From: Escherichia coli
GTDB lineage: Bacteria; Pseudomonadota; Gammaproteobacteria; Enterobacterales; Enterobacteriaceae
Assembly: GCF_009931435.1 (NCBI RefSeq)
Contig: NZ_CP043414.1
Direction: 5' to 3' (one strand)
DNA length: 64,000 nt
Position 1 is the stretch's first letter, and each line of letters starts with the position of its first letter. Below the pieces are notes generated by a model. It had not been told where the DNA came from. It did no database searches and was given only the letters and a program-made list of their open reading frames with translations. Positions 10,022 to 35,494 of the stretch are shown here, piece after piece. The translations under genes and the position numbers were made by a program.

Positions 10022-11005
10022 ATGGAAGGTAAGTTAATTTTTTGTTCCGATGCAATACTACGGTTTCAGTCCGATTACGATGAAACCGCTGCCGTTCCAT
10101 TGCTATCCATCCAGAACGTCATAGCCGATACCGATCCGTTCTTTCTTCTCCGTTTCTTCCACCATACCGTTCTGATTGAAGAAGGAACAACGCTGGCAAG
10201 TATCTTTCTGGCAATAGAACCGTGGAAGGCTTTGTTAGCGGCTTATCTGGACAGAGATGTTGGTGCTTATATAGATGAGGTAAGAAAACCGTCCGGGCCA
10301 ACGACATGGGATATTGAATGGATTGGGATTGATCGTCGTAGCATGGTTTACCGCGCTTATAAACGTCAGGAGATGCAGGATGGAGAGGATTTTTCTGACT
10401 ATTTAAACCGGGAACGCGTTCTGACCGATGAATTTGAAATTGAAAGTGGCTGTGAGGCTTCTGGCTACATTAAAGGTGATAAAGAACGCTGGAGCATCAG
10501 TGGTGATGTTCACGAGATAAAGAATCTGCCTGTAATCCTCTATAGCAAACAGACATTGATGACTTCACCGAAAGACGGTTTGCTGAAGAAAAACGTATCG
10601 GGTGTGAAGAGTTCCAAGCACAGTTGCTTCGTTTATGGCGATACCTCGTTTTCATTGAGAGAGGTTATGGAAGCCATCTACATTAGCGGGCTGTTCTTCT
10701 ATGCGCCAAGAGACGCCGCCAGTAGTCTTGATGCGCTGAAAGCGAGTGTGGCTGGACTGGAAGACGAACTGACCGAGGTGCCTGAAACAGAATCGGATAA
10801 TAATGAAACAGATGAAGAACCTACCATCGTCGTAGCCGACGGTGCTTTTGATTCGCTCGCTGCTCACATGGAGTCTGAAAAAGCGGAGTGGCAATACATT
10901 AAGAAGTTGTGCCAGCAAGATAGCGAGCTGCCCATACGTATTGGTAGTATCAGAATAGCTGAGCCTGCGGAGCTATGTATTGGCGGGAAAATCTTACATG
11001 AATAG
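10022..11005 (+). CDS. Hypothetical protein (327 aa) with acidic C-terminal region; higher GC than neighbours
   Basis: Very strong RBS (AGGAGGAGGA) upstream of ATG 10022. Confidence 0.6.
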   Translation: MEGKLIFCSDAILRFQSDYDETAAVPLLSIQNVIADTDPFFLLRFFHHTVLIEEGTTLASIFLAIEPWKALLAAYLDRDVGAYIDEVRKPSGPTTWDIEWIGIDRRSMVYRAYKRQEMQDGEDFSDYLNRERVLTDEFEIESGCEASGYIKGDKERWSISGDVHEIKNLPVILYSKQTLMTSPKDGLLKKNVSGVKSSKHSCFVYGDTSFSLREVMEAIYISGLFFYAPRDAASSLDALKASVAGLEDELTEVPETESDNNETDEEPTIVVADGAFDSLAAHMESEKAEWQYIKKLCQQDSELPIRIGSIRIAEPAELCIGGKILHE

Positions 11006-11171
11006 GTACAGGCAACAGTTAGCATTGTGGTGAAAGGATATGGTGTATGTTTGCTCACTTTTTTGTGTTATCTCCTGATCAACCCTATGTCGACTATGGT
11101 AAAATTCCCAACTTTAACACCAACGTAGCAAGTGTTTTATGAGCGCGTAGTCAACCAGTAAGGACATTGAA

Positions 11172-12089
11172 TTGAACATTAACGCAACACCAGTATTAAT
11201 TACACTTGTCTACGAAGCGCTTTTAAGATCCTTTTGGCGTAAACCCGCACTCAAAAAATTTTTGTTATCGTCGCATATTTCTGAAAGCTTCATTTCAACT
11301 TGGAGAGAAGATGAATCAAAAAGAAATTTTTTAGATCGTTTGTTCCCTAAATTACAAAGTAGTGCAAAAGGAAAAAATGTTATCTGCCATATGGCAGTTA
11401 ATCTTTCTGAACAGACTTCTTTTCCTGATTTAAAAGGCTGGGAAGATTCTCTACAAATGATTCAATCTGCAACTGATGCCATAAAAGATTTAAAAAACTA
11501 TATAACAAAACAAAATGAAGAACATCAGACTGAAAAAGAAAAACAAGAGTTCAGAGCACGAGCAGAAAAAGAGAGAACTGAAATAAAACGCTCTGAGACG
11601 GATTTGATGAAATTAAAGAATGAATTTGAGTGTTTGCATAATGAAATAGGAACTCAAAATGGTGGCTACGCATTTGAAAAGTGGTTTTTTAAACTTGTAG
11701 ACTACTGTGAAATTGTCTGTAAAAAACCATATAAAACTAATGGTAGGCAAGTAGATGGAGCCATAACTATTGAAGGCACTACGTACCTTGTTGAATTAAA
11801 ATTTCAGAAAACACAGGCTGACGCCATCGACATCGACTCATTAAAAGCTAAAGTGAGTAAAATGGCTGATAACACGATGGCTGTAATGATTTCTGTATCA
11901 GGTTATTCCTCTGTTGCCATAACTGAATCATCGGGTAGTCGAACCCCTTTATTATTATTAGATTATAGCCATTTATATTTATTCTTGAGTGGTGGAATGA
12001 GATTTGATGAAATAATTACACGGATAAGACGCCATTCTTCACAAACAGGAGAATCTTACCTATCTGTAAATTCATTTGGTGGATTTTAA
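11172..12089 (+). CDS. Putative nuclease: N-terminal domain plus coiled coil plus C-terminal Mrr-like PD-(D/E)xK restriction-endonuclease fold
   Basis: C-terminal GYAFEKWFF...RQVDGAITIEGTTYLVELKFQK fits the Mrr G-x-x-FE / D / E-x-K pattern; apparent TTG start at 11172 with AGGA 7 nt upstream. Confidence 0.55.
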   Translation: MNINATPVLITLVYEALLRSFWRKPALKKFLLSSHISESFISTWREDESKRNFLDRLFPKLQSSAKGKNVICHMAVNLSEQTSFPDLKGWEDSLQMIQSATDAIKDLKNYITKQNEEHQTEKEKQEFRARAEKERTEIKRSETDLMKLKNEFECLHNEIGTQNGGYAFEKWFFKLVDYCEIVCKKPYKTNGRQVDGAITIEGTTYLVELKFQKTQADAIDIDSLKAKVSKMADNTMAVMISVSGYSSVAITESSGSRTPLLLLDYSHLYLFLSGGMRFDEIITRIRRHSSQTGESYLSVNSFGGF

Positions 12090-12558: not shown

Positions 12559-13032
12559 TCAGAAAACATACTTTTTGAATACCAGCATCCATCGCTCGCA
12601 AAGTTCGTGATTTGAAGTGCTTTTATTTTTTAGGGGAACATTAACTTTCCACATGGGATTTTTAATATCATCGGTTAAAATATTGAGGCCAGACCGTTTA
12701 TTCGCTGAAAGTTGTTCTCTCCAGTTAGCAATAGCCGCATTATTCATACCTCGTAATGTTCCATTGCCGTAAAACTTACCACCCTCTGAAAGCGTGTAAT
12801 TTATTTCCCGGATTTCATCAAAAGTATATGTGCTGTCTTTATCTTTATTGAAAATACGGACAGTATGTTTTTGAGTATCAATTACAATACCTGTCTGCTG
12901 GCATTCATAAGAAAGAATGTCGCCGTCCAGAACTTCCGTAAAGCTGTTGTAGTGCTTTTTCTTCTGTATATCTGCTGCGGTCATGATAATGACGAAGAGC
13001 ACCACTAAAAATACGATACCTGTTGCTTCCAC
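12559..13032 (-). CDS. Membrane-anchored hypothetical protein (N-terminal TM helix)
   Basis: GTG start at 13032 preceded by GGAGGAA RBS gives an N-terminus running straight into a hydrophobic helix (IVFLVVLFVIIMTAA); the ORF track's upstream ATG at 13047 lacks an RBS. Confidence 0.5.
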   Translation of the reverse strand: MEATGIVFLVVLFVIIMTAADIQKKKHYNSFTEVLDGDILSYECQQTGIVIDTQKHTVRIFNKDKDSTYTFDEIREINYTLSEGGKFYGNGTLRGMNNAAIANWREQLSANKRSGLNILTDDIKNPMWKVNVPLKNKSTSNHELCERWMLVFKKYVF

Positions 13033-13166
13033 TCTTACTTCCTCCATGTAAATGAGTTAAAGAGACTGAACCCGCTCACAGAGCTTTGCTTCGTTTTATA
13101 CGTGCTACAGCACCAAACTCATGGCGTCGGTCTCGGCGTTGCAAGGCTATCAGAACTTGAAATTAT

Positions 13167-13392
13167 GATCGATATAAAAGATCGATAATTTGTTATTGAT
13201 AGATAATAACGATTGAAAGCGCGATATCGATCGGTGCTTAATTGTTATTATCGATCGAATATCTATTTATGATAGTTGTAAGCTATCGTGCGGTCGTTTT
13301 TGATCGTTTTAAACGATATGACGAGACGCTAAAAGAATTGAATCCTATCAATTGGTTAAGCGGTGGTTTTGCCATGTGATATCAGCCGGATC
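13167..13392. promoter_or_regulatory. Divergent intergenic region with six GATC (Dam) sites and several short palindromes
   Basis: GATC at 13167, 13180, 13229, 13253, 13302 and 13389 within ~225 bp, between divergently oriented envelope-protein genes. Confidence 0.5.
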
Positions 13393-13464
13393 CCGCAACA
13401 ACTCTAGCCCTGACCGGATTAGGTCAAAAATTTAGGCACTTTGATTATCAGGATGGATAAGCAG

Positions 13465-13995
13465 ATGAAGAAGATTTTACTCGTTGCTGGCGCAGCTCTG
13501 GCACTGGCGGGATGTGGTGAGAAAGGTGAGTTTGAGAAAGCGATTAATGCCAAGATTGGGCAAGACAAATACTGCTTCTCGCTGGATAACAATAACACCA
13601 GCTTCCCTATCCGTCTTGCCAAGCCACTACTTGATTCGACTGGCACAGGGACGAATTCAGTGATCCTCGATGGTTTTATTGAGCAGGGCCTGATGGTTTT
13701 TGAGCAGGGTTATGATTCGAATGTATTAGGGATAACAGAGGAAGGCAAAAAAGCCAAAGTCTGGAGCACAACAGACGGTGCCTGTGTTGGTCGTCGTGCT
13801 GTTGACGATATTAAGGAATGGACTGAGCCGGGCAACGGTAATCAGAAAGTCGTTCGCGTGTCTTATACGTGGAAGCTGGTTGACGTTCCGGGCTGGATTG
13901 ACAAAAAAGCGTTCGCCAACGTCAAAGGAATGAATGAACCTGCTGATGGTGCAATAAATCTCGTTAAAACCAGTAATGGCTGGAGAGCTAACTAA
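13465..13995 (+). CDS. Lipoprotein, hypothetical (176 aa)
   Basis: Signal/lipobox MKKILLVAGAALALAGC. Confidence 0.6.
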   Translation: MKKILLVAGAALALAGCGEKGEFEKAINAKIGQDKYCFSLDNNNTSFPIRLAKPLLDSTGTGTNSVILDGFIEQGLMVFEQGYDSNVLGITEEGKKAKVWSTTDGACVGRRAVDDIKEWTEPGNGNQKVVRVSYTWKLVDVPGWIDKKAFANVKGMNEPADGAINLVKTSNGWRAN

Positions 13996-15282: not shown

Positions 15283-16764
15283 TTAGTGTTTCTTATGGCT
15301 CGGTGGACTCAGTTTTGGCGCGCTTCCTTGCCTCATGTGTTCTGGTGGCATTGAAGGTGTGAGATTTATGCTTCTATTAACTTCCGGCTGTTCCTGATTA
15401 GGACGGCTTGGTAAACGTTTGATTTCATCAGGTGTTAATTTATAGTCACCATTGTTAAATTTGGTACGTTTTTCAAACTCCGAGCGTGGAACATTGACAC
15501 CCAGCACTTCATCATAGACATAGTTCTCTGCGATACGCTTATCATGGTCAGCATCAATGGTATCGGGTTTCCTTCTGGCCCATACAAATCTCTCTTTGAA
15601 GAAGCCCACCACAAGCAGTGTGAAACGCTTAAACAAACCATTTTGTCGTGGCTTAGTCTGTTTCCTACTTCTCATCGGAGCACGGTTTATCGCTCTGGTG
15701 TTTCGAGAAGAAGGGGTTTCCAGTTTAGTGGATGCAGTTGGTTCAGGAACAATCAGAACGGGAGATTTCTTCCCTGAAATACTTACTTTACTGACCTTAT
15801 TAGGATTACGGTATGATTTTGCTGCTGGTCTTCTGCTTGTAGTTGCTGTTGCCACAATCGGCTGTTGTTCTACTGTTACCGGGTCGTCTGGAAGAACAAT
15901 CTCTTCGGGGTCAGGAAGAATTGTTATCTCAAAGCTTCTGACATCAACAACGATCTCCAGTGGTAGCTCACTGAATGTGGTGTAGACCTTCTTGGCCTCT
16001 TCAATTTGATGATCGCGTTGAGCTTGTTCAACAGATCGCTGTTCCTGAGACTCTTTGTCATTCCATTTAGCACGATGAACACGTTGCATTGCCGGGCGGT
16101 TAGTTTCCGTTGCTTTGGCAAGCCAGAACGCTTTTTCTTCAGCGCTGAATGCTTCTTCTGCCTGAGCAAGGGCATCAGCACATTGAGTTCTGAGAGAACG
16201 GTGATCGATACGTTCTTCACTGCCTGCAGTCTCAAGGTAGCTGTTTGACATCGTGGCCCATGACTCACGCCACTGAACAACCATCTTCTTATCATTCCAG
16301 CTTCTGTCTTTTTTACCGAAGCCTTCGGGACCGATAGTTTTCAGGGTTAACATGACGTGAGCATGGGGATTCTTACCATCTAAATCGTGGAATGCGATAT
16401 CAGCAATCATTCCTTTATCAGCAAAGTTCTTCTGGCAGTATTCGGCAACTAATTTTTTCTTGTCATCATTGCTGAGTTCTACGGGAATAGCGACATCAAA
16501 ATAACGGGCTGTTTGACCATTGTTCTGGCGTTCCACTCTTTCAACTTCATTCCAGAGTGCTGACGAGCTTTCAACAATATGAGCAGGTGCGGAAACAGGG
16601 GCTAATATAATATGACCATGAAGATCTGTTCTGTGGCTGAAATCAAATGTCTCGCCAATGCGATCATCTTTAATACGTGTACGGGCATGGTAGGCAGCTT
16701 TCGCAACAGAAGTCATGCCTTCGCTTCGTTTCACAATTTTAAAATCCAGATGAAAAATCGCCAT
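15283..16764 (-). CDS. mobA: MobA/MobL-family (MOBQ) conjugative relaxase
   Basis: N-terminus MAIFHLDFKIVKRS...AKAAYHAR with candidate catalytic Tyr; three-His motif HDLDGKNPHAHVML (H-x-D-x4-N-x-H-x-H). Confidence 0.85.
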   Translation of the reverse strand: MAIFHLDFKIVKRSEGMTSVAKAAYHARTRIKDDRIGETFDFSHRTDLHGHIILAPVSAPAHIVESSSALWNEVERVERQNNGQTARYFDVAIPVELSNDDKKKLVAEYCQKNFADKGMIADIAFHDLDGKNPHAHVMLTLKTIGPEGFGKKDRSWNDKKMVVQWRESWATMSNSYLETAGSEERIDHRSLRTQCADALAQAEEAFSAEEKAFWLAKATETNRPAMQRVHRAKWNDKESQEQRSVEQAQRDHQIEEAKKVYTTFSELPLEIVVDVRSFEITILPDPEEIVLPDDPVTVEQQPIVATATTSRRPAAKSYRNPNKVSKVSISGKKSPVLIVPEPTASTKLETPSSRNTRAINRAPMRSRKQTKPRQNGLFKRFTLLVVGFFKERFVWARRKPDTIDADHDKRIAENYVYDEVLGVNVPRSEFEKRTKFNNGDYKLTPDEIKRLPSRPNQEQPEVNRSINLTPSMPPEHMRQGSAPKLSPPSHKKH

Positions 16765-17409
16765 TAAAAATATAACCTCAAATAAAAGTAATGCTGTTAG
16801 TTTTTCGTAAGAAAAACTTCGGGGTTGACGTTGACCTTGGTTTTACTTTTAGCCTGCGGCAGCAACCGTCGGTAGACCCCACACACTGCGTAGCAGTGTA
16901 TAGGTGGGCATTGTCTTTAAGAAAATAAGCCAATGTAAAATGCCCCTCTTATTAATTAATACGAAATATATGTATGGTTGTAAAATAATACGCCGGAATA
17001 AGCGGCGCAAACTGGATTAAAGGTGTAGGTTTCACGTCCACAGAACAAAAAGAGTAAAGAAAAGGCCCGTAAGGGCAAAAGAAATATTAATTATTCCCGC
17101 CGTAAGGCGGGATAGCTAAATTTGATGGAAAAAAACCAATAAAACAGAGAGTGTTATGTGTTGCACAATTCACAGGTTGAGATTGGAAAATAGAGTTTAA
17201 AATTGACAGGTGAAAATAAAAGCACAAATGCGCAAAAATAAGTAACGCGGAGAGTGCCAGATGTTTTTGGTTAGTGAATACTATCATATGCGTTGCACAT
17301 ATTTATAAAGAAATGTATCAGAATCATTCTCTCTGACAAAACAGACTAAATTTGACGTTATTTATCTTTGTGATAATTAAAATAAGATATAATAATAGAA
17401 GGAGGTAGT
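16765..17409. other. Candidate oriT region between divergent relaxase and mobC-like genes
   Basis: Hairpin acactgc-gta-gcagtgt at 16883-16899; two GTAA(G)-loop hairpins (gccc-gtaa-gggc, cccgcc-gtaa-ggcggg) at 17064-17108; geometry mirrors RSF1010 mobC-oriT-mobA. Confidence 0.4.
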
Positions 17410-20246: not shown

Positions 20247-21998
20247 TTATGAGGTTTGTAATAAAGAGAAGGCGTCATCCAATAGAATTTTCTCGCTATT
20301 GTTTATCTCTTTATTTAATAGAAATGATCTCACTGATTTTGCATTACCGATACAAATTTGTTTCGCTTTTCCTGCGAAATATTTCTTATTTATTTCATTG
20401 ATATCAAAAAGTGGATTGTCATTAATTTCGTTTTTTTTATATTCTGCTACGGTAAATAGCATTTGCTCATTATTACCAGATTCATTTCCTAAGAACTTAA
20501 AAATAAGATCTCTATTTCCAATATCTATATCTTCTTTGAATATAGCATCTAACAAAAATGGAAATTTATGGATTGTTTTTCTTTTATTGATTAATTTAAT
20601 AAAGGAAAAATGATAAGCCATGATTATTTTATGTAATTCAACCCCTTGGAAGGGGAAGGATGTAATGGAATAAAGATTTTGATACCTTGGATTATTAGGT
20701 ATTATTATCTTCAAAGCTTTTGCTTTTTCGCTGAAAATAGTTAAAAATTCCTTGTCAATGTTGTTTCGGAGAGAGTTAATTTGTGAATCTGTGAGTAGGT
20801 TGTCAATTTGGGTGTTAAGGTTTGATATTTTTTCGACATAATTAGCTTCTTTAATTTTAATATCATTTAAAATGGTGATATTTGCACGGTGATTAACCCA
20901 ATGGTCAAAGTCAATATTTTCGATTCTCGATTCTTTTAACACCTCATACTCAAGCTTTATTTTTTCACTATCGTGTTTGATCTTTCTTTCAACAGAATTT
21001 AATGATGACGAAACATTTTTAATTTCTTCAGTTATACGTTCTTTTTCTCGTAACGCATCGTTAATATCTTGAGTATAGATATATAATTGTCTAAGATCGC
21101 CGGGTAGCGTTTGTTCGCATACAGGACATGTGTCAACGCTGGGTTTTTGAAGTTTTAAATTTCGAATAGTTTGTAAAAGTACTTTTTGACGCCCACGTAA
21201 CATACTGAGTTTATTGCATAGTTTTTCATAATTAGCTTCTTCCGTAATCAGATTTTCTGCTAATATGTTGTATTTTTTTAAGTAATCAATTGCTTCCCCT
21301 TTGAATCGAGACTCTAATATCTCAGAGATTTTAAGAGAGCTATCTTTTGTTTTGTATTGAATTAATTGCTCTCTTTCATATTCAATTTGTTGTTTTTCTT
21401 TTTGCAACATATATTTTTGCAATCTGTCCGTACGATCTTTTATGCCTGCGTAGTAATCAAGGTAGTCATATTTGAAGTCTTTATAAAATCTATAATCACC
21501 TATTGATTCTCTTAGATAAACCCAACCAACAGATTGAGATATATAGAATGGCAAGAATGCAGCTTCTATCGGTGCATCAGTAAACTTAGTTTGGTTCTGT
21601 AATGTTAGATTAAAGTCAAATAAGTGGTTAAATAATTTTTTGTATCTTGCATATTCATATGAGTTATTTCCATTAATGCCATCAAACCGTAGGGGGACTC
21701 TATCATCAATGCGAACGACGAGAGTATCATCAAATCGAACAAATACAACCGTATGAGATGATTTTACTTTTATTATTTCACACTCAAGACGAAAGAGTAC
21801 TCTTTCTGTAAGAATGTCGTGCAAATTTTCTTTGGAATCATTAACACCCATTGTGTACAAAATTGATTGCATTAATGTACTTTTCCCTGATGTGTTCCTC
21901 CCGTGAATAATATTGACTGAGTCACCAAAATCAGTGCAAAAAAAACCTTTATTATTCATAGAGTATGCTAAAATGCTTTTCAGAATTAATTTAGACAT
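20247..21998 (-). CDS. SMC/Rad50-like ABC ATPase with coiled coil and CxxC hook (Lamassu LmuB-like)
   Basis: Walker A GRNTSGKST near N-terminus; long heptad-rich middle; CPVCEQ in mid-protein; start ATG 21998 with GAGGAA RBS overlaps upstream stop (ATGTCTAA). Confidence 0.65.
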   Translation of the reverse strand: MSKLILKSILAYSMNNKGFFCTDFGDSVNIIHGRNTSGKSTLMQSILYTMGVNDSKENLHDILTERVLFRLECEIIKVKSSHTVVFVRFDDTLVVRIDDRVPLRFDGINGNNSYEYARYKKLFNHLFDFNLTLQNQTKFTDAPIEAAFLPFYISQSVGWVYLRESIGDYRFYKDFKYDYLDYYAGIKDRTDRLQKYMLQKEKQQIEYEREQLIQYKTKDSSLKISEILESRFKGEAIDYLKKYNILAENLITEEANYEKLCNKLSMLRGRQKVLLQTIRNLKLQKPSVDTCPVCEQTLPGDLRQLYIYTQDINDALREKERITEEIKNVSSSLNSVERKIKHDSEKIKLEYEVLKESRIENIDFDHWVNHRANITILNDIKIKEANYVEKISNLNTQIDNLLTDSQINSLRNNIDKEFLTIFSEKAKALKIIIPNNPRYQNLYSITSFPFQGVELHKIIMAYHFSFIKLINKRKTIHKFPFLLDAIFKEDIDIGNRDLIFKFLGNESGNNEQMLFTVAEYKKNEINDNPLFDINEINKKYFAGKAKQICIGNAKSVRSFLLNKEINNSEKILLDDAFSLLQTS

Positions 21999-23079
21999 AC
22001 ATTCCTCTTGTCTCAACATATGCAGCTATTATCGCAAATGCAATCATGTGTTTTTCTAACCTTGAATTATATGTGTTAATATAAGTTTGATATAATTCAG
22101 TAATACAATCTGCTTCATCTGTATGTTTATAATCTATTTGTGTGTTTTCTGATACAAATTTATAAATCTTTTTGTATTCTACTTGTTGAAAATCTTTAAA
22201 AAAATCGAAACAGTTATCTAATAATTCTTGCGCTCTTCTTTTTATAGGGAGCTTAATTGATAATCCTTTCGCCAATTTATCTGCATGAGAACGCCAAAAG
22301 TTGAAAGCTTTTTTACTTTCTTGGAACATACTGAATGTTGCATCAATTTTTTGTTTGGTCAAACGCTTTGACCTATCTGTAAGTAAAGCATATCCAGCAT
22401 TATTATATGTTAACTCAACATCTTGCAATAAAGCCATTAGAGTTGTTATTACAGCGTCATGATCACTAACCTTACAACCTAGAACCTCAGTAGATAAACC
22501 TGTTAGCGTTCTTCTCCACCCTTTATAAGTTTGAGGAAGGTCAATGAAACTAAATTTTACATTAGAGAGTTGCTTAAAATCTGCAATTTCTCCATCTATT
22601 AGTTTTGATTGAATGTTTTCTTTGATTTCATCATGTAGATCAGAATAATTTTTAGAGATGTTTGTTACTTGTATTTTTTCTACTTTGCATTTTTTACCTT
22701 TTTCTTTCTTACCCTGAAGTATAATATTTCGATTTGTCAAGAAAGATAGAGTGTGTTTGTAATCATCAGATTTGGGGTGTTTATCGTTGATAAGTTCATT
22801 TCCAACAAGCGATATTTTTCCGATGATCTCACAAAATTTTTGATCCGTTTTCCAGTCATCTCTTGATTTTTTAGCTTGATAAGTATCAATGCGACTAATG
22901 TCACCATTTTCATCAACAAAGGCAAAAAGAAAATCTTCATGGTGTTCAACACATATAAAATAATCTAGCAATGGAGAGTTTAGTTTTTCGTAATCATCAA
23001 AAAGAAGGTATACAACACAACAACGTTGGAATGTATATCCTGAGCCTCCCTCAACTCCTGAGTTGACGCTTTCTGACAT
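21991..23079 (-). CDS. Mrr-like PD-(D/E)xK nuclease-domain protein (Lamassu LmuA-like effector, putative)
   Basis: N-terminal GYTFQ ... VEHHEDFLFAFVDENGD ... IDTYQAKK fits the Mrr-type G-x-x-FE / D / (Q/E)-x-K pattern; translationally coupled to the downstream ATPase. Confidence 0.5.
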   Translation of the reverse strand: MSESVNSGVEGGSGYTFQRCCVVYLLFDDYEKLNSPLLDYFICVEHHEDFLFAFVDENGDISRIDTYQAKKSRDDWKTDQKFCEIIGKISLVGNELINDKHPKSDDYKHTLSFLTNRNIILQGKKEKGKKCKVEKIQVTNISKNYSDLHDEIKENIQSKLIDGEIADFKQLSNVKFSFIDLPQTYKGWRRTLTGLSTEVLGCKVSDHDAVITTLMALLQDVELTYNNAGYALLTDRSKRLTKQKIDATFSMFQESKKAFNFWRSHADKLAKGLSIKLPIKRRAQELLDNCFDFFKDFQQVEYKKIYKFVSENTQIDYKHTDEADCITELYQTYINTYNSRLEKHMIAFAIIAAYVETRGMYV

Positions 23080-23348
23080 TTTTTGTTGCCCCTGTTAATC
23101 AAATCATAGCGTAAATCTATTAATACATATTTAACATTGGCTTTATGTATGAAATACGCATTCTCCTTAGCTAAAGGATATTATAAAGTGGACTAAAAAT
23201 CATCTAACACCTTGCAAAATGTGAAGTTTTTCTTCATGTAAAACTCATAAATAACGTTACTATTCTGTTAGTAACGAAATAATCGGGAAACTTGCTATTT
23301 ACGGTTTACAGGAATCTTAATCAAAGTTGTGTAAAAGTTTAATCTTAC

Positions 23349-23624: not shown

Positions 23625-24854
23625 TCAAGCAGCCATAGCCCTATACTTTTGCGCCTTAACGTAATCTCCCCACCATTGCATAAGCACTTCTCGCTCCCCT
23701 AAATATTCAGCTCGATTGTAGGCTGCTATGATTTCAGTGCTTTTGGTATGGGCCAATGCTGCTTCAAGAACTTCTGTTCTGAATTTGCCACTCTCTTCGG
23801 CGGCTGTTCTGGCAATAGAACGCATACCATGAGCTACCAGTTCACCACCCAACCCCATACGAATCAATGCGGCGTTGGCTGTCTGCTCATGCATGTGGGC
23901 CAATGGTGTTTTTATGCTGGGAAATACCCATTCACGATGACCGCTGATAGGCTGCATGTTTTCCAGAATGCGAAGTGCCTCTTTGCTTAATGGCACTTTA
24001 TGAGGCCGTTTCATCTTCATAAACTCTGGTGGGATGTTCCAGATTTTATTCTCTGTATCGATGTCAGCCCAACGAGCACGAACAGCCTCACCGGGGCGAA
24101 CCCATGTCAGCAGTTGCCATTCAATCAGCATACGGGTTTCCAGACGGATGGATGCGTTTGCCAGTGCAATCATAAACCGGGGGATTTCGCTTGGTGGTAA
24201 TGCTGGCATATTTTGTTTTTTGGGCTTACTGAAACGTTGACCAAGGTTGTCGGCTGGGTTGAACTCAATGAGTTCTTCTGTGGCAGCATAGCGAAAAATT
24301 TCATTCAGGCGGGAAATGATGCGACGTAGAGTTTCAAGCACACCCCGTTGTTCAATTGGGTCGAGATGCTGCTTGAGCATTTTGGGGCGGATCTCTTTGA
24401 TAGGGACATCACCCAGAGTGGGAAAGATGTTCCGTTCAAGGCTACGCCAGATGTCTTCTGCATGATCTTGGGATATACCGGAAGTCTTAATCTTTTCATC
24501 CAACCACTTTCTTGCAACAGCCTGTAGCGTGTTTTCAGTCGCATCTTTTAGTGCATTGGCTTTTTCGTTGTTATGGACTTGAGGATCGATACCGTTGGCA
24601 AGTAGGGAGAGATACTCATCCCGCAAAGTTCGTGCCTTAGCCAAGGTAAGGTGAGGGTAGGTTCCAAGACTCATTTTTGTGCGTTTTTTGGTCACTGGCA
24701 CTGAATACCTGAAATACCAGTTTTTCTTCCCTCCTTTTGTGTCTGGCGCTATGCGTAGCAGTAATCCATCTCCATCAAAGAGGTTGATTTCCTTATCGCC
24801 GGGTTTGGTATTTTTGATTTCAGTATCAGTAAGTTTTTTTGCGAGCTTTGCCAT
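23625..24854 (-). CDS. intA: P4-type tyrosine integrase (IntA-like) adjacent to ssrA
   Basis: 409 aa; C-terminal catalytic region ...VAHGMRSIARTA...ALAHT...AAYNRAEY; sits directly downstream of the tmRNA 3' end as in CP4-57. Confidence 0.9.
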   Translation of the reverse strand: MAKLAKKLTDTEIKNTKPGDKEINLFDGDGLLLRIAPDTKGGKKNWYFRYSVPVTKKRTKMSLGTYPHLTLAKARTLRDEYLSLLANGIDPQVHNNEKANALKDATENTLQAVARKWLDEKIKTSGISQDHAEDIWRSLERNIFPTLGDVPIKEIRPKMLKQHLDPIEQRGVLETLRRIISRLNEIFRYAATEELIEFNPADNLGQRFSKPKKQNMPALPPSEIPRFMIALANASIRLETRMLIEWQLLTWVRPGEAVRARWADIDTENKIWNIPPEFMKMKRPHKVPLSKEALRILENMQPISGHREWVFPSIKTPLAHMHEQTANAALIRMGLGGELVAHGMRSIARTAAEESGKFRTEVLEAALAHTKSTEIIAAYNRAEYLGEREVLMQWWGDYVKAQKYRAMAA

Positions 24855-25018: not shown

Positions 25019-25381
25019 TGGTGGAGCTGGCGGGAGTTGAACCCGCGTCCGAAATTCCTACATCCTCGGTACTACATGCTTAGTCAGTCTTTACATTCGC
25101 TTGCCAGCTGCGGACGGACACGCCACTAACAAACTAGCCTGATTAAGTTTTAACGCTTCAACCCCAGGCAGGGCTTCCACGCGATCTCTTTTGGGTTTGA
25201 CCTCTCTTGATCCCCGTCCTAAGAGCGGAGGCTAGGGAGAGAGGGCTCTAAGCAGGTTATTAAGCTGCTAAAGCGTAGTTTTCGTCGTTTGCGACTATTT
25301 TTTGCGGCTTTTTACGAGGCCAACCGCCCCTCGGCATGCACCTTGGGTTTCGCAAATCCCGTCGAATCCAGAATCAGCCCC
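25019..25381 (-). ncRNA. ssrA: tmRNA (SsrA), 363 nt
   Basis: Reverse complement reads GGGGCUGAUUCUGGAUUCGACGGG ... GCAAACGACGAAAACUACGCUUUAGCAGCUUAA (tag reading frame) ... GGUUCAACUCCCGCCAGCUCCACCA. Confidence 0.97.
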
Positions 25382-34600: not shown

Positions 34601-34927
<327 letters not shown>

Positions 34928-34945
34928 TCTGTCACGGTGGTCATG

Positions 34946-35494
34946 ATGAGCAAACAACTCACCGCGCAAGCACCTGTTGATCCCATCGTTTTGGGAAAAA
35001 TGGGTTCGTCTTACGGTATTCGTGGGTGGCTCAGAGTGTTTTCTTCCACCGAAGACGCCGAAAGCATTTTTGACTATCAGCCCTGGTTTATCCAGAAGGC
35101 GGGTCAGTGGCAGCAAGTCCAGCTGGAAAGCTGGAAGCACCACAATCAGGACATGATCATCAAGCTGAAAGGCGTTGACGATCGTGATGCGGCGAACCTG
35201 CTGACGAATTGTGAAATTGTCGTGGATTCATCGCAGCTGCCTCAGCTTGAAGAGGGTGACTACTACTGGAAAGACCTGATGGGCTGCCAGGTAATAACCA
35301 CTGAAGGCTACGATCTCGGTAAAGTCATCGATATGATGGAAACCGGATCTAATGACGTTCTCGTCATTAAGGCAAACCTGAAAGATGCGTTTGGTATCAA
35401 GGAACGTCTCGTACCGTTCCTCGATGGGCAGGTTATCAAGAAAGTCGATCTCACTACTCGTTCAATCGAAGTAGATTGGGATCCTGGTTTTTAA
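34946..35494 (+). CDS. rimM: Ribosome maturation factor RimM
   Basis: Product [35 protein letters not shown]... Confidence 0.95.

Follow-up and report, generated by a model that had tools for sequence, protein, structure and literature searches.

A candidate OxyR/Dam phase-variation switch upstream of the SEN1982-family lipoprotein operon in ROD21-like genomic islands

To our knowledge, the characterised Dam-dependent epigenetic switches are few: the pap type, agn43, gtr, opvAB, std, and sci1. The gtr switch (P22, Salmonella) operates through OxyR together with Dam (Broadbent et al. 2010, PMC2909390). It contains three half-sites. Each of the outer two holds a pair of GATC sequences 13 bp apart, and the central one is free of GATC; the pairs start at −110/−97 and −46/−33 (PMC2909390). 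The opvAB switch of Salmonella enterica also operates by OxyR and Dam (Cota et al. 2016, PMC4856963). Its half-site centres are at −148, −116, −75, and −43, corresponding to spacings of 32, 41, and 32 bp, and their scores are 10, 8, 10, and 7 of 10. This spacing is called canonical for reduced OxyR, the weak sites overlap GATC, and switching is abolished when the weak sites are improved (PMC4856963).

The locus described here is a non-coding module found in a 64-kb stretch of Escherichia coli DNA, which is called the window below. The module sits in a ROD21-like (EARL) genomic island, upstream of a SEN1982-family lipoprotein operon. Judging from its sequence and from the comparisons below, it may well be an OxyR/Dam phase-variation switch that has not been described before and that serves this operon. 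The support is architectural and evolutionary. We infer OxyR as the binder, the block to its binding by methylation, the promoter position, and the identity of the ON state. In the literature that was searched (papers on ROD21 and EARL islands and methylomes of Photorhabdus, Klebsiella, and ST131), no experimental sign of binding by OxyR, of undermethylation, or of expression in two states was found for the locus. The features are listed in Table 1.

Table 1. Features of the module and its neighbourhood, in window coordinates. Dyad scores are matches out of 10 to the OxyR consensus, here and as the mean over 40 copies.
Feature	Coordinates	Strand	Score or conservation	Remarks
Core module, non-coding, ~195 bp	13165..13360	+		Holds 5 of 6 GATC
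Dyad Da, ATCGATATAAAAGAT	13168..13182		7/10; mean 6.65/10	GATC1 and GATC2 inside
Dyad Db, ATAGATAATAACGAT	13199..13213		9/10; mean 8.72/10	Without GATC
Dyad Dd, ATTGTTATTATCGAT	13241..13255		8/10; mean 7.85/10	GATC4 at right edge
Dyad De, ATAGTTGTAAGCTAT	13272..13286		10/10; mean 9.47/10	Without GATC
Dyad Df, ATCGTTTTAAACGAT	13303..13317		8/10; mean 7.97/10	GATC5 at left edge
Dyad Dg, AGAATTGAATCCTAT	13334..13348		7/10 here, 8/10 in most copies; mean 7.55/10	Weak
GATC1	13167..13170		GATC in 31/40; AATT in one subclade, 9/40	Left half of Da
GATC2	13180..13183		GATC in 38/40	Right half of Da; 13 bp from GATC1
GATC3	13229..13232		GATC in 38/40	Between Db and Dd, inside no scored dyad
GATC4	13253..13256		GATC in 40/40	Overlaps right half of Dd
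GATC5	13302..13305		GATC in 40/40	Overlaps left half of Df
GATC6	13389..13392		Common to closest relatives only	Beyond the conserved core
Near-invariant block AAACGATATGACGA	13311..13324	+		Includes right half of Df
−10-like hexamer AAGAAT	13333..13338	+	AATAAT in 30/40	Putative promoter element
IHF consensus WATCAANNNNTTR match, TATCAATTGGTTA	13346..13358	+		Predicted from sequence
SEN1982-family lipoprotein gene	13465..13995	+		Conserved downstream target of the module; lipobox LAGC
DUF4755 gene	12559..13047	−	Pfam DUF4755, E = 3.9e-14	Divergent neighbour in this lineage only

The first-pass annotation had drawn attention to this region as a concentration of six Dam sites in about 225 bp. 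All six are located as it described, and no other GATC occurs from 11337 to the first of them at 13167. Its remark that several of the sites lie in short palindromes also agrees with the sequence: GATCGATA/TATCGATC holds four GATCs, two of which are in CGATCG. The window contains 209 GATCs in total, so that about 0.74 would be expected in 226 bp, and six correspond to an excess of about 8-fold. The region 13167–13392, whose G+C content is 40% against 47% for the window, is the densest GATC cluster of the window, and the window itself is not GATC-rich overall (209, where shuffles average 230). The several-fold excess that had been claimed is there, but the count by itself lacks significance. 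Under uniform placement of the 209 sites, the scan statistic gives P = 0.13 for at least six in some 226-bp span and P = 0.17 for at least five in 139 bp; such a cluster is expected in 13% of 64-kb windows. The count was accordingly dropped as evidence. The cluster is taken as real because GATC1 to GATC5 are retained in evolution at fixed positions in the orthologous copies (Table 1), with start-to-start spacings of 13, 49, 24, and 49 bp. Only two extra GATCs are seen anywhere in the module across 40 copies, and the context of GATC3 is conserved as (T/C)GATCGGT. The sixth GATC, which had been counted as a member of the cluster, falls outside the conserved element.

The module behaves as a unit. 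It is matched separately, at 73–77% identity, in divergent island lineages of E. coli; the flanking DNA of these cannot be aligned, and query positions 118–312 are all that they have in common. The module is carried by 680 of 5426 complete E. coli genomes (~12%), with up to three copies per genome; E. coli ATCC 25922 is one strain that has it. With nhmmer, it is found in 35 of 37 loci of other Enterobacterales (E = 1e-24 to 1e-57), in about 20 genera. The module-bearing island family spans E. coli, Klebsiella, Serratia, Yersinia, Pectobacterium, Dickeya, and other genera, and its presence in Salmonella is known from the literature on EARL islands, which reports such islands in EPEC E2348/69, S. 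Enteritidis P125109, and K. pneumoniae ST258. In an alignment of 40 copies (A3), the mean column identity is 80%. The module is always on the plus side, and a plus-strand ORF, the first of the operon, begins 16–116 bp to its right in 38 of 41 copies. In the two loci without the module, its position upstream of this lipoprotein gene is filled by a divergent gene for an Xre-type regulator, which is what an exchange of regulatory cassettes would produce. Inside the near-invariant block, TATGACG(A/G) is present in 33 of 40 copies. The IHF consensus WATCAANNNNTTR fits 37 of 40 copies, of which 29 have TATCAATTGGTTA and 8 have TATCAATTGATTA.

The small ORF at 13242–13379 was rejected as coding, based on 1-nt indels in the alignment and the lack of codon periodicity. 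A role as RNA or single-stranded DNA structure, either a single-strand promoter of the Frpo type or a leader hairpin, was also rejected: the covariation term given by alifold for the module is negligible (−0.73), and the pair counts of the TGATAG-N7-CTATCA hairpins are not above those of shuffles. An excess of G·U-compatible changes was apparent by eye and disappeared when counted. The Rfam search of the module returned one match, which at 18.9 bits was below the gathering score of 50.

The module was scanned for 15-bp dyads, which were scored out of 10 against the OxyR consensus ATAGnTnnnAnCTAT. De is the sole 10/10 match within the window. Of the sites found by scanning the whole window, two of the five scoring at least 9 and four of the 32 scoring at least 8 lie in a stretch of about 135 bp inside the element, and five of the seven OxyR-compatible half-site pairs of the window fall inside the element. 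When the element was shuffled 20,000 times with its dinucleotides preserved, the probability of at least four sites scoring at least 8/10 is 4e-4, that of a 10/10 site is 2.5e-4, and the sum of the top four scores was never attained. Da and Dg are singly no better than chance, as shuffles give 2.4 sites of at least 7 per 200 bp; Da, weak alone, is backed by its 31-bp phase with Db and by the gtr-like register of its GATCs. The same scan applied to known operators gives 8, 10, and 8 for gtr A, B, and C of P22, with centres 32 and 32 bp apart, and 8 and 8 for the agn43 operator of K-12, with centres 32 bp apart.

The centres of the dyads are separated by 31, 42, 31, 31, and 31 bp, on one face of the helix. 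The spacing 31/43(42)/31/31/31 is kept in nearly all of the 40 copies. Over these orthologues, the dyad positions specified by the consensus are 95.6% conserved, the unspecified ones 67.4%, and the remaining core 77.7%. The per-position profile of De (in percent, A98 T98 A98 G95 n T85 nnn A78 n C98 T100 A100 T100) reproduces the OxyR consensus. A possible 22-bp partner of De, of the oxidised-form type, was noted at 13250; it scores 7/10 here, and its orthologue consensus is poor by eye. A seventh dyad, holding GATC3, was also considered.

The strongest dyads, Db and De, are free of GATC, and the weaker dyads flanking them, Da, Dd, and Df, hold four of the five conserved GATCs. Where a GATC arises from a non-consensus base, at position 13 of Dd, position 3 of Df, and position 13 of Da, that base is invariant in 40 of 40 copies. 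At position 13 of Db, the non-consensus G forms no GATC, and there the consensus T is seen in 8 of 40 copies. Position 13 of Df is invariant though it forms no GATC. The GATC-free dyads (GATAG...CTATC) conserve the outer G and C as well, the bases by which GATC is completed elsewhere, and thus this conservation is no proof of selection for methylation. The first-pass annotation had proposed phase variation dependent on Dam and a regulator, with oxyR among those listed. That four of the five conserved GATCs overlap OxyR-like dyads, arranged with the spacing of switches and with alternating strength, supports this proposal and points to OxyR as the probable regulator.

Several features are shared with gtr. 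Dd(8)-De(10)-Df(8), 31 and 31 bp apart, corresponds to A(8)-B(10)-C(8) of gtr, 32 and 32 bp apart: a perfect GATC-free centre with weaker GATC-bearing flanks. The two GATCs in Da are spaced by 13 bp and share the register of the pairs in gtr sites A and C. Db is identical at 13 of 15 bases to the gtr half-site B, ATAGATAAAAACTAT, and the context of GATC3, TTGATCGGT, recurs at the GATC1 of gtr. There are also differences. The module contains six half-sites and five GATCs, compared with three and four in gtr. Dd and Df have one GATC each, where the gtr sites have pairs. An upstream pair, Da-Db, offset by 42–43 bp, and a downstream dyad, Dg, are additional here. The genes downstream are unrelated, a lipoprotein operon here and glycosyltransferases in gtr.

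The upstream part of the array can be compared with opvAB. The spacing of Da-Db-Dd-De is 31/42(43)/31, against 32/41/32 in opvAB. In both, strong (10/10) and weak (7–8/10) sites alternate, the weak ones overlap GATC, all sites are on one helical face, and some GATCs are outside the half-sites, like GATC3 here. Both loci are horizontally acquired. The order of strong and weak sites from Da to De relative to the downstream operon is, however, inverted, and Df and Dg are additional.

The half-sites of agn43 (flu) of E. coli show the forms ATAG-N7-CGATC and ATCG-N7-CGAT, 32 bp apart. Df shares its form with the agn43 dyad ATCGTTTATATCGAT and with gtr dyads A and C, and the flu sequence GATCaATATCTATTTtAT resembles GATCGAATATCTATTTAT at 13253–13270. 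In agn43, however, there is only one tetramer site, which contains three GATCs, is located downstream of the transcription start, and serves for repression only; the module has six half-sites, which seem to precede the promoter. The pap family (Lrp, PapI, and Dam) shares with the proposed switch two alternative regulator-binding regions, each with GATC, and heritable methylation patterns. It differs in its GATC pair about 102 bp apart; no combination of GATC spacings here gives 102 bp, the contexts are not Lrp-like, and no papI- or papB-like gene is present among the neighbours.

The promoter side is less clear. The scan for sigma-70 promoters and terminators over 12950–13550 found no plus-strand promoter; its one weak minus-strand match is below the shuffle mean and lies in the non-conserved spacer. 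Because no canonical plus-strand sigma-70 promoter was found, it can only be inferred where the dyads stand in relation to the transcription start. The −10-like hexamer starts 16 nt after Df. If this hexamer is the −10 of the promoter, Dd, De, and Df would sit at about −97, −66, and −35, compared with −102, −70, and −38 in gtr.

By analogy with gtr and opvAB, an OxyR tetramer could occupy alternative pairs of neighbouring dyads. The series Dd (GATC4), De (no GATC), and Df (GATC5), 31 and 31 bp apart, would permit occupancy of either Dd and De or De and Df. At a bound weak dyad, OxyR would shield the GATC from Dam; at an unbound one, the GATC would be methylated and would then refuse OxyR. Each methylation pattern would be rebuilt once the DNA is replicated, so that the ON and OFF states are passed on within lineages. 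With the −10-like hexamer as promoter, OxyR on De and Df (or Df and Dg) would occlude the promoter (OFF), and OxyR on Dd and De would activate it (ON). The number of half-sites, six, is higher than in any characterised OxyR/Dam switch, so the simple analogy with gtr may be incomplete. It can be speculated, as a long shot, that the array is a multi-state epigenetic device of the mobile island. Methylation would be reset on conjugal arrival or in replication after excision, when the DNA is hemi- or unmethylated, and the lipoprotein operon would thereby be coupled to the history of transfer and excision; the array could also compete for OxyR with agn43 and gtr.

It seems unlikely that the module is instead an ordinary, population-wide operator array of OxyR or another LysR-type protein, with GATCs that are by-products of ATCG/CGAT variants or only tune affinity, and with no heritable states. 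Such an array would account for the flanking G and C at the GATC-free dyads, since a single base separates GATAG from GATCG, and for the subclade without GATC1, which keeps the half-site as ATTG. It would not account for the GATC-bearing dyads, which were never improved to ATAG/CTAT in any of the 40 copies, whereas the non-GATC deviation of Db was improved in eight. Improved weak sites are what abolished switching in opvAB, and strong dyads without GATC that alternate with weak ones carrying it, 31 bp apart, are the layout behind bistability in gtr and opvAB. ATC-N9-GAT, or T-N11-A, is the generic LysR-type box, and the dyads fit it; another LysR-type regulator, such as HdfR, could thus be the binder. 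The islands of the family also encode several small HTH and winged-helix proteins, including a RepL-family protein here, and the RepL-like SEN1990 is reported as a predicted DNA-binding regulator. That a dimeric protein of any of these kinds binds the dyads, with a merely convergent likeness to OxyR sites, is nevertheless decidedly unlikely. The two best dyads, at 9 and 10 of 10, have the OxyR-specific form ATAG...CTAT with T6 and A10 included, the evolutionary profile gives the OxyR consensus position by position, and the spacing is that of proven OxyR sites. The module is in about 20 genera with varying island cargo, whereas OxyR is a core protein.

GATC clusters conserved in position in an AT-rich non-coding element of about 200 bp recall oriC, and also P1 oriR, both bound by SeqA. 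Together with the RepL-family protein of the island and the IHF-consensus match, this might suggest a replication origin of the island or a SeqA-sequestration site, where the cluster would control firing or timing after excision. Such a role is highly improbable. No TTATCCACA-like DnaA box with up to two mismatches is present in 13140–13400, and there are no iterons besides the OxyR-like dyads. Linkage is with the lipoprotein operon and not with repL, which is separated from the module by 5 kb of cargo here and by varying distances in other lineages. The module is dispensable in two islands, which keep the lipoprotein gene without it, and in a published study the RepL-like gene had no effect on the replication or maintenance of excised ROD21. 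As the island is mobilisable and has an unmapped oriT, the inverted repeats of this conserved non-coding element, with its IHF-like site, might also recall the oriT of the MobQ relaxase, an idea that is scarcely credible here. The inverted repeats of the module show no covariation beyond shuffles, and mobQ is about 2–4 kb away with variable cargo between. A better candidate is the block 16765–17020, directly upstream of mobQ: it is conserved in 20 loci and contains an inverted repeat with a 7-bp stem followed by ATAGGTGGGC, the usual layout of MOBQ. The pac site of P1 contains TGATCR hexamers and IHF. A similar site was rejected here, as the island is without terminase genes and the blastn search of phages gave no matches to the module; the few matches in the plasmid search are all the same island or mislabelled chromosomes. 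That GATC is clustered by chance in this AT-rich intergenic DNA and has no function, as the scan statistic would allow for the count alone, is next to impossible: five of the sites keep their positions in about 20 genera, and the motif statistics are strong.

The candidate switch faces different genes on its two sides. The divergent layout of envelope-protein genes given in the first-pass annotation applies to the window, where the DUF4755 gene and the lipoprotein gene point away from the module, but not to other lineages, in which the left neighbour is different or co-directional. Both genes had been named as candidates for phase variation. The right-hand SEN1982-family operon remains a candidate; the left gene, varying between lineages, does not. 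The product of the lipoprotein gene is 58% identical in amino acids to a protein annotated as SEN1982 family. Its AlphaFold model, of good quality (pLDDT 81), has no PDB match with E < 0.01 or a query-normalised TM-score > 0.25. The RefSeq label 'LptM family' was set aside, as it reflects a sub-threshold match to the signal peptide.

If confirmed, the module would add one more OxyR/Dam switch to those known, with more half-sites than any of them, and would show a switch design that travels on mobile DNA and uses the OxyR and Dam of the host core. A SEN1982-family protein is reported to be required for systemic colonisation by S. Enteritidis, and phase-variable expression of the family, if true, would bear on heterogeneity in virulence. 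It would also bear on the interpretation of ROD21 expression studies in bulk culture. Cross-talk has been reported between ROD21 and the OxyR/Dam-controlled gtrA-gtrB-oafB operon, and competition for OxyR, if it occurs, might explain it.

Six GATC sites between divergent genes, several of them embedded in short palindromes, were described in the first-pass annotation as an excess that might underlie Dam/regulator-dependent phase variation. The cluster is confirmed: all six sites, at 13167, 13180, 13229, 13253, 13302, and 13389, are in the 418-bp intergenic gap between the DUF4755 gene and the lipoprotein gene, and four of the six lie within the 8-mer GATCGATA or its complement. The density here is ~8 times the window average (expectation 0.74 per 226 bp). 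The 64-kb window overall is not GATC-rich (209 sites). The statistical argument for an excess is nevertheless weak. When 209 sites are randomly placed in 64 kb, at least six fall within 226 bp in 13% of trials, so the count alone is unconvincing. The second densest cluster, five GATC in 148 bp (34835-34982), is coding DNA, apparently the end of rpsP (ribosomal protein S16) and the beginning of the gene that follows it. Three GATC spaced exactly 24 bp (4404-4455) are within the proline/aspartate-rich repeat (CCGGATCC...) of a ypjA-like autotransporter gene (735-5396); this is the periodicity of a coding repeat and not a regulatory cluster.

Matches to the intergenic region are seen in 680 of 5426 complete E. 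coli genomes, at up to three places in some. Divergent E. coli lineages (73-77% identity) have only query 118-312 in common, which corresponds to 13165-13359 and carries no annotation. In a five-lineage alignment the first five GATC sites (GATC1-5) are invariant, and the flanks are unalignable. This ~195-bp core, here called the module, was searched for in 37 lipoprotein-encoding loci from contigs of one genome per species (Escherichia, Sodalis, Enterobacter, Erwinia, Buttiauxella, Serratia, Yersinia, Brenneria, Citrobacter, Pluralibacter, Mangrovibacter, Dickeya, Klebsiella, Pectobacterium, Cedecea, Samsonia, and Rouxiella, among others). A core profile search found it in 35 of them (E = 1e-24 to 1e-57), every time in the same orientation as the lipoprotein gene. 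GATC1-5 are kept in 31, 38, 38, 40, and 40 of 40 aligned copies, in which only two extra GATCs occur; the sixth site (13389) is outside the core. Chance concentration of GATC is excluded by this conservation. The module is very probably a conserved protein-binding regulatory array with functionally constrained GATCs.

A plus-strand ORF begins 16-116 bp right of the module in 38 of 41 copies, and it is the lipoprotein gene or a ~188-aa gene ahead of it. The gene on the left points away from the module operon in some lineages and in the same direction in others. In the two module-less loci, Erwinia sp. OLFS4 (L008 1200-1970) and Serratia marcescens UMH3 (L010 3200-4005), a divergent Xre-type HTH regulator gene with its own intergenic region takes that position upstream of the same lipoprotein gene. 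Cedecea colo (L037) contains two module copies (3692-3897 and 7411-7617), 3.7 kb apart.

The conserved palindromes of the module have the form AT[A/C/T]G-N7-C[T/G]AT, the same as that of the OxyR half-site ATAGnTnnnAnCTAT, whose ten specified positions were scored throughout the window. Six dyads, Da to Dg, are recognized in the module, with centres spaced by 31, 42, 31, 31, and 31 bp, or 3, 4, 3, 3, and 3 helical turns. De (13272) is the single 10/10 match in the 64 kb. The module contains two of the five window sites scoring at least 9, four of the 32 scoring at least 8, and five of the seven OxyR-compatible half-site pairs. Of dinucleotide-preserving shuffles of the module, 0.04% contain four sites of at least 8/10 and 0.025% contain a perfect one. 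Two other pairs of OxyR-like dyads at the spacing of a tetramer, 23106 (9/10) with 23136 (7/10), 30 bp apart (23106-23150) just upstream of an ORF on the minus strand (21991-23079), and 8345 (7/10) with 8377 (8/10), 32 bp apart (8345-8391) upstream of the RepL-like gene, are not accompanied by a GATC cluster.

Features of the module and the surrounding island
Feature	Position	Strand	OxyR match	Remark
RepL-like gene	7754-8311	minus
DUF4755 gene	12559-13047	minus		left of gap
Da	13168-13182		7/10	GATC1, GATC2
Db	13199-13213		9/10	no GATC
Dd	13241-13255		8/10	GATC4
De	13272-13286		10/10	no GATC
Df	13303-13317		8/10	GATC5
Dg	13334-13348		7/10	no GATC
IHF-consensus match	13346-13358			sequence match
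Invariant block AAACGATATGACGA				in module
Lipoprotein gene	13465-13995	plus		right of gap
MobQ relaxase gene	15283-16764	minus
Integrase gene	23625-24854
tmRNA	25019-25381

Over the 40 copies, the mean matches from Da to Dg are 6.65, 8.72, 7.85, 9.47, 7.97, and 7.55 of 10, and the spacing 31/43(42)/31/31/31 is kept in nearly all. Consensus-specified positions are 95.6% conserved, versus 67.4% for unspecified positions. The profile of De (A98 T98 A98 G95 n T85 nnn A78 n C98 T100 A100 T100) practically restates the OxyR consensus. The non-consensus bases by which GATC arises, at Dd position 13, Df position 3, and Da position 13, never vary (40/40 at each). A comparable departure in Db, which creates no GATC, is back to consensus in 8 of 40 copies.

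In its sequence, the module combines features of three proven OxyR/Dam switches. In gtr, which has three half-sites, OxyR on A and B gives ON and on B and C gives OFF; A and C contain GATC pairs spaced 13 bp, B contains none, methylation blocks OxyR, and OxyR blocks Dam. Likewise, Dd-De-Df is a weak site with GATC, a perfect site without it, and a weak site with GATC; Da holds a GATC pair, also spaced 13 bp, in the gtr register, and Db is 13/15 identical to site B. In opvAB, four half-sites on one helical face are centred at -148, -116, -75, and -43 (spacing 32, 41, 32; matches 10, 8, 10, and 7 of 10). GATC sites overlap the weak half-sites, and switching is lost when these half-sites are improved. 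Da-Db-Dd-De are spaced as in opvAB, whose report calls the 32-bp distance canonical for reduced OxyR. Df shares its form with the agn43 dyad. As positive controls, the same scan gave 8/10/8 for gtr A/B/C (32 + 32 bp) and 8 + 8 for the K-12 agn43 operator (32 bp).

Regulation of the ordinary kind by OxyR or a LysR-type protein, with no bistability, is less probable, although the G and C completing GATC are conserved at GATC-free dyads as well. A different dimeric regulator could bind the dyads because ATC-N9-GAT is a box common to LysR-type proteins; the two best dyads are OxyR-specific, and this alternative is less probable still. The module is unlikely to be a replication origin: it has no DnaA boxes, is not linked to repL, and is dispensable in two islands. 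It is also unlikely to be oriT, for which a better candidate is the conserved block with an inverted repeat immediately upstream of mobQ. No support was found for RNA or single-strand structure of the module. The block upstream of mobQ (16765-17020), a second conserved non-coding block, is present in 20 related loci. Within it, the sequence ACACTGC-GTAG-GCAGTGT forms an inverted repeat, with ATAGGTGGGC after it. This block is probably the previously unmapped oriT of the island.

The module region is inside a ~19.5-kb island bounded by the ypjA-like autotransporter gene and ssrA. Homologous E. coli islands encode RepL, H-NS-like proteins, SEN1984- and SEN1982-family lipoproteins, MobQ relaxase, TraD, type IV pilin/PilV, and integrase, the gene set described for ROD21-like (EARL) islands. 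Two cargo slots are variable in this family (window 10022-12089; L001 12887-14951; L002-L004 7700-10300) and look like defence-gene hotspots. The slot from RepL to DUF4755 holds SIR2 and TIR in L001, and two ORFs of 327 and 305 aa without Pfam match in the window, which may be an undescribed system. The slot from the lipoprotein operon to mobQ holds TIR, TPR, ApeA, or reverse-transcriptase genes.

The lipoprotein shares 58% identity with a protein that carries the SEN1982-family annotation, and one published SEN1982 qPCR primer sequence was found by eye exactly in its gene. SEN1982 is reported to be necessary for systemic colonisation of mice. The AlphaFold prediction is confident (pLDDT 81), with no significant or informative match in PDB. 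RefSeq names close homologues "LptM family lipoprotein"; the NCBIfam LptM match covers only the signal peptide and is sub-threshold (18.2 vs. cut-off 27.7 bits). SEN1990, the ROD21 homologue of the RepL-like gene, reportedly has no effect on replication of the excised island, and its deletion is reported to lower expression of the SPI-17 operon gtrA-gtrB-oafB, which is subject to OxyR/Dam phase variation (PMC10655114). That effect could stem from clones differing in phase state, or from the six-site array of the island competing for OxyR.

Sequence architecture and conservation support the suggestion of phase variation and narrow it to OxyR and the right-hand operon; the left neighbour varies among lineages. 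We lean towards the module being a functioning OxyR/Dam bistable switch. By analogy with the proven switches, OxyR tetramers would pick among overlapping half-site pairs; a bound weak dyad would remain unmethylated, and an unbound one would be methylated and then exclude OxyR. A -10-like hexamer starts 16 nt past Df (AATAAT in 30 of 40 copies, AAGAAT in the window), and a promoter scan found no plus-strand promoter. If this hexamer is the promoter, Dd, De, and Df would be at about -97, -66, and -35, versus -102, -70, and -38 in gtr, and Dg would be over the start site. OxyR on De and Df or on Df and Dg would then mean OFF, and on Dd and De, ON. The open-access papers on ROD21/EARL that were consulted do not mention the module region, OxyR sites, or Dam, and no paper with open-access full text was found that links OxyR, Dam, and phase variation to ROD21, ICEKp258.2, or the serU island. 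This type of mechanism is already established; what is new is the locus, its breadth, and the array of six sites. The methylation pattern would be inherited and would carry with it the SEN1982-family operon's transcriptional state.
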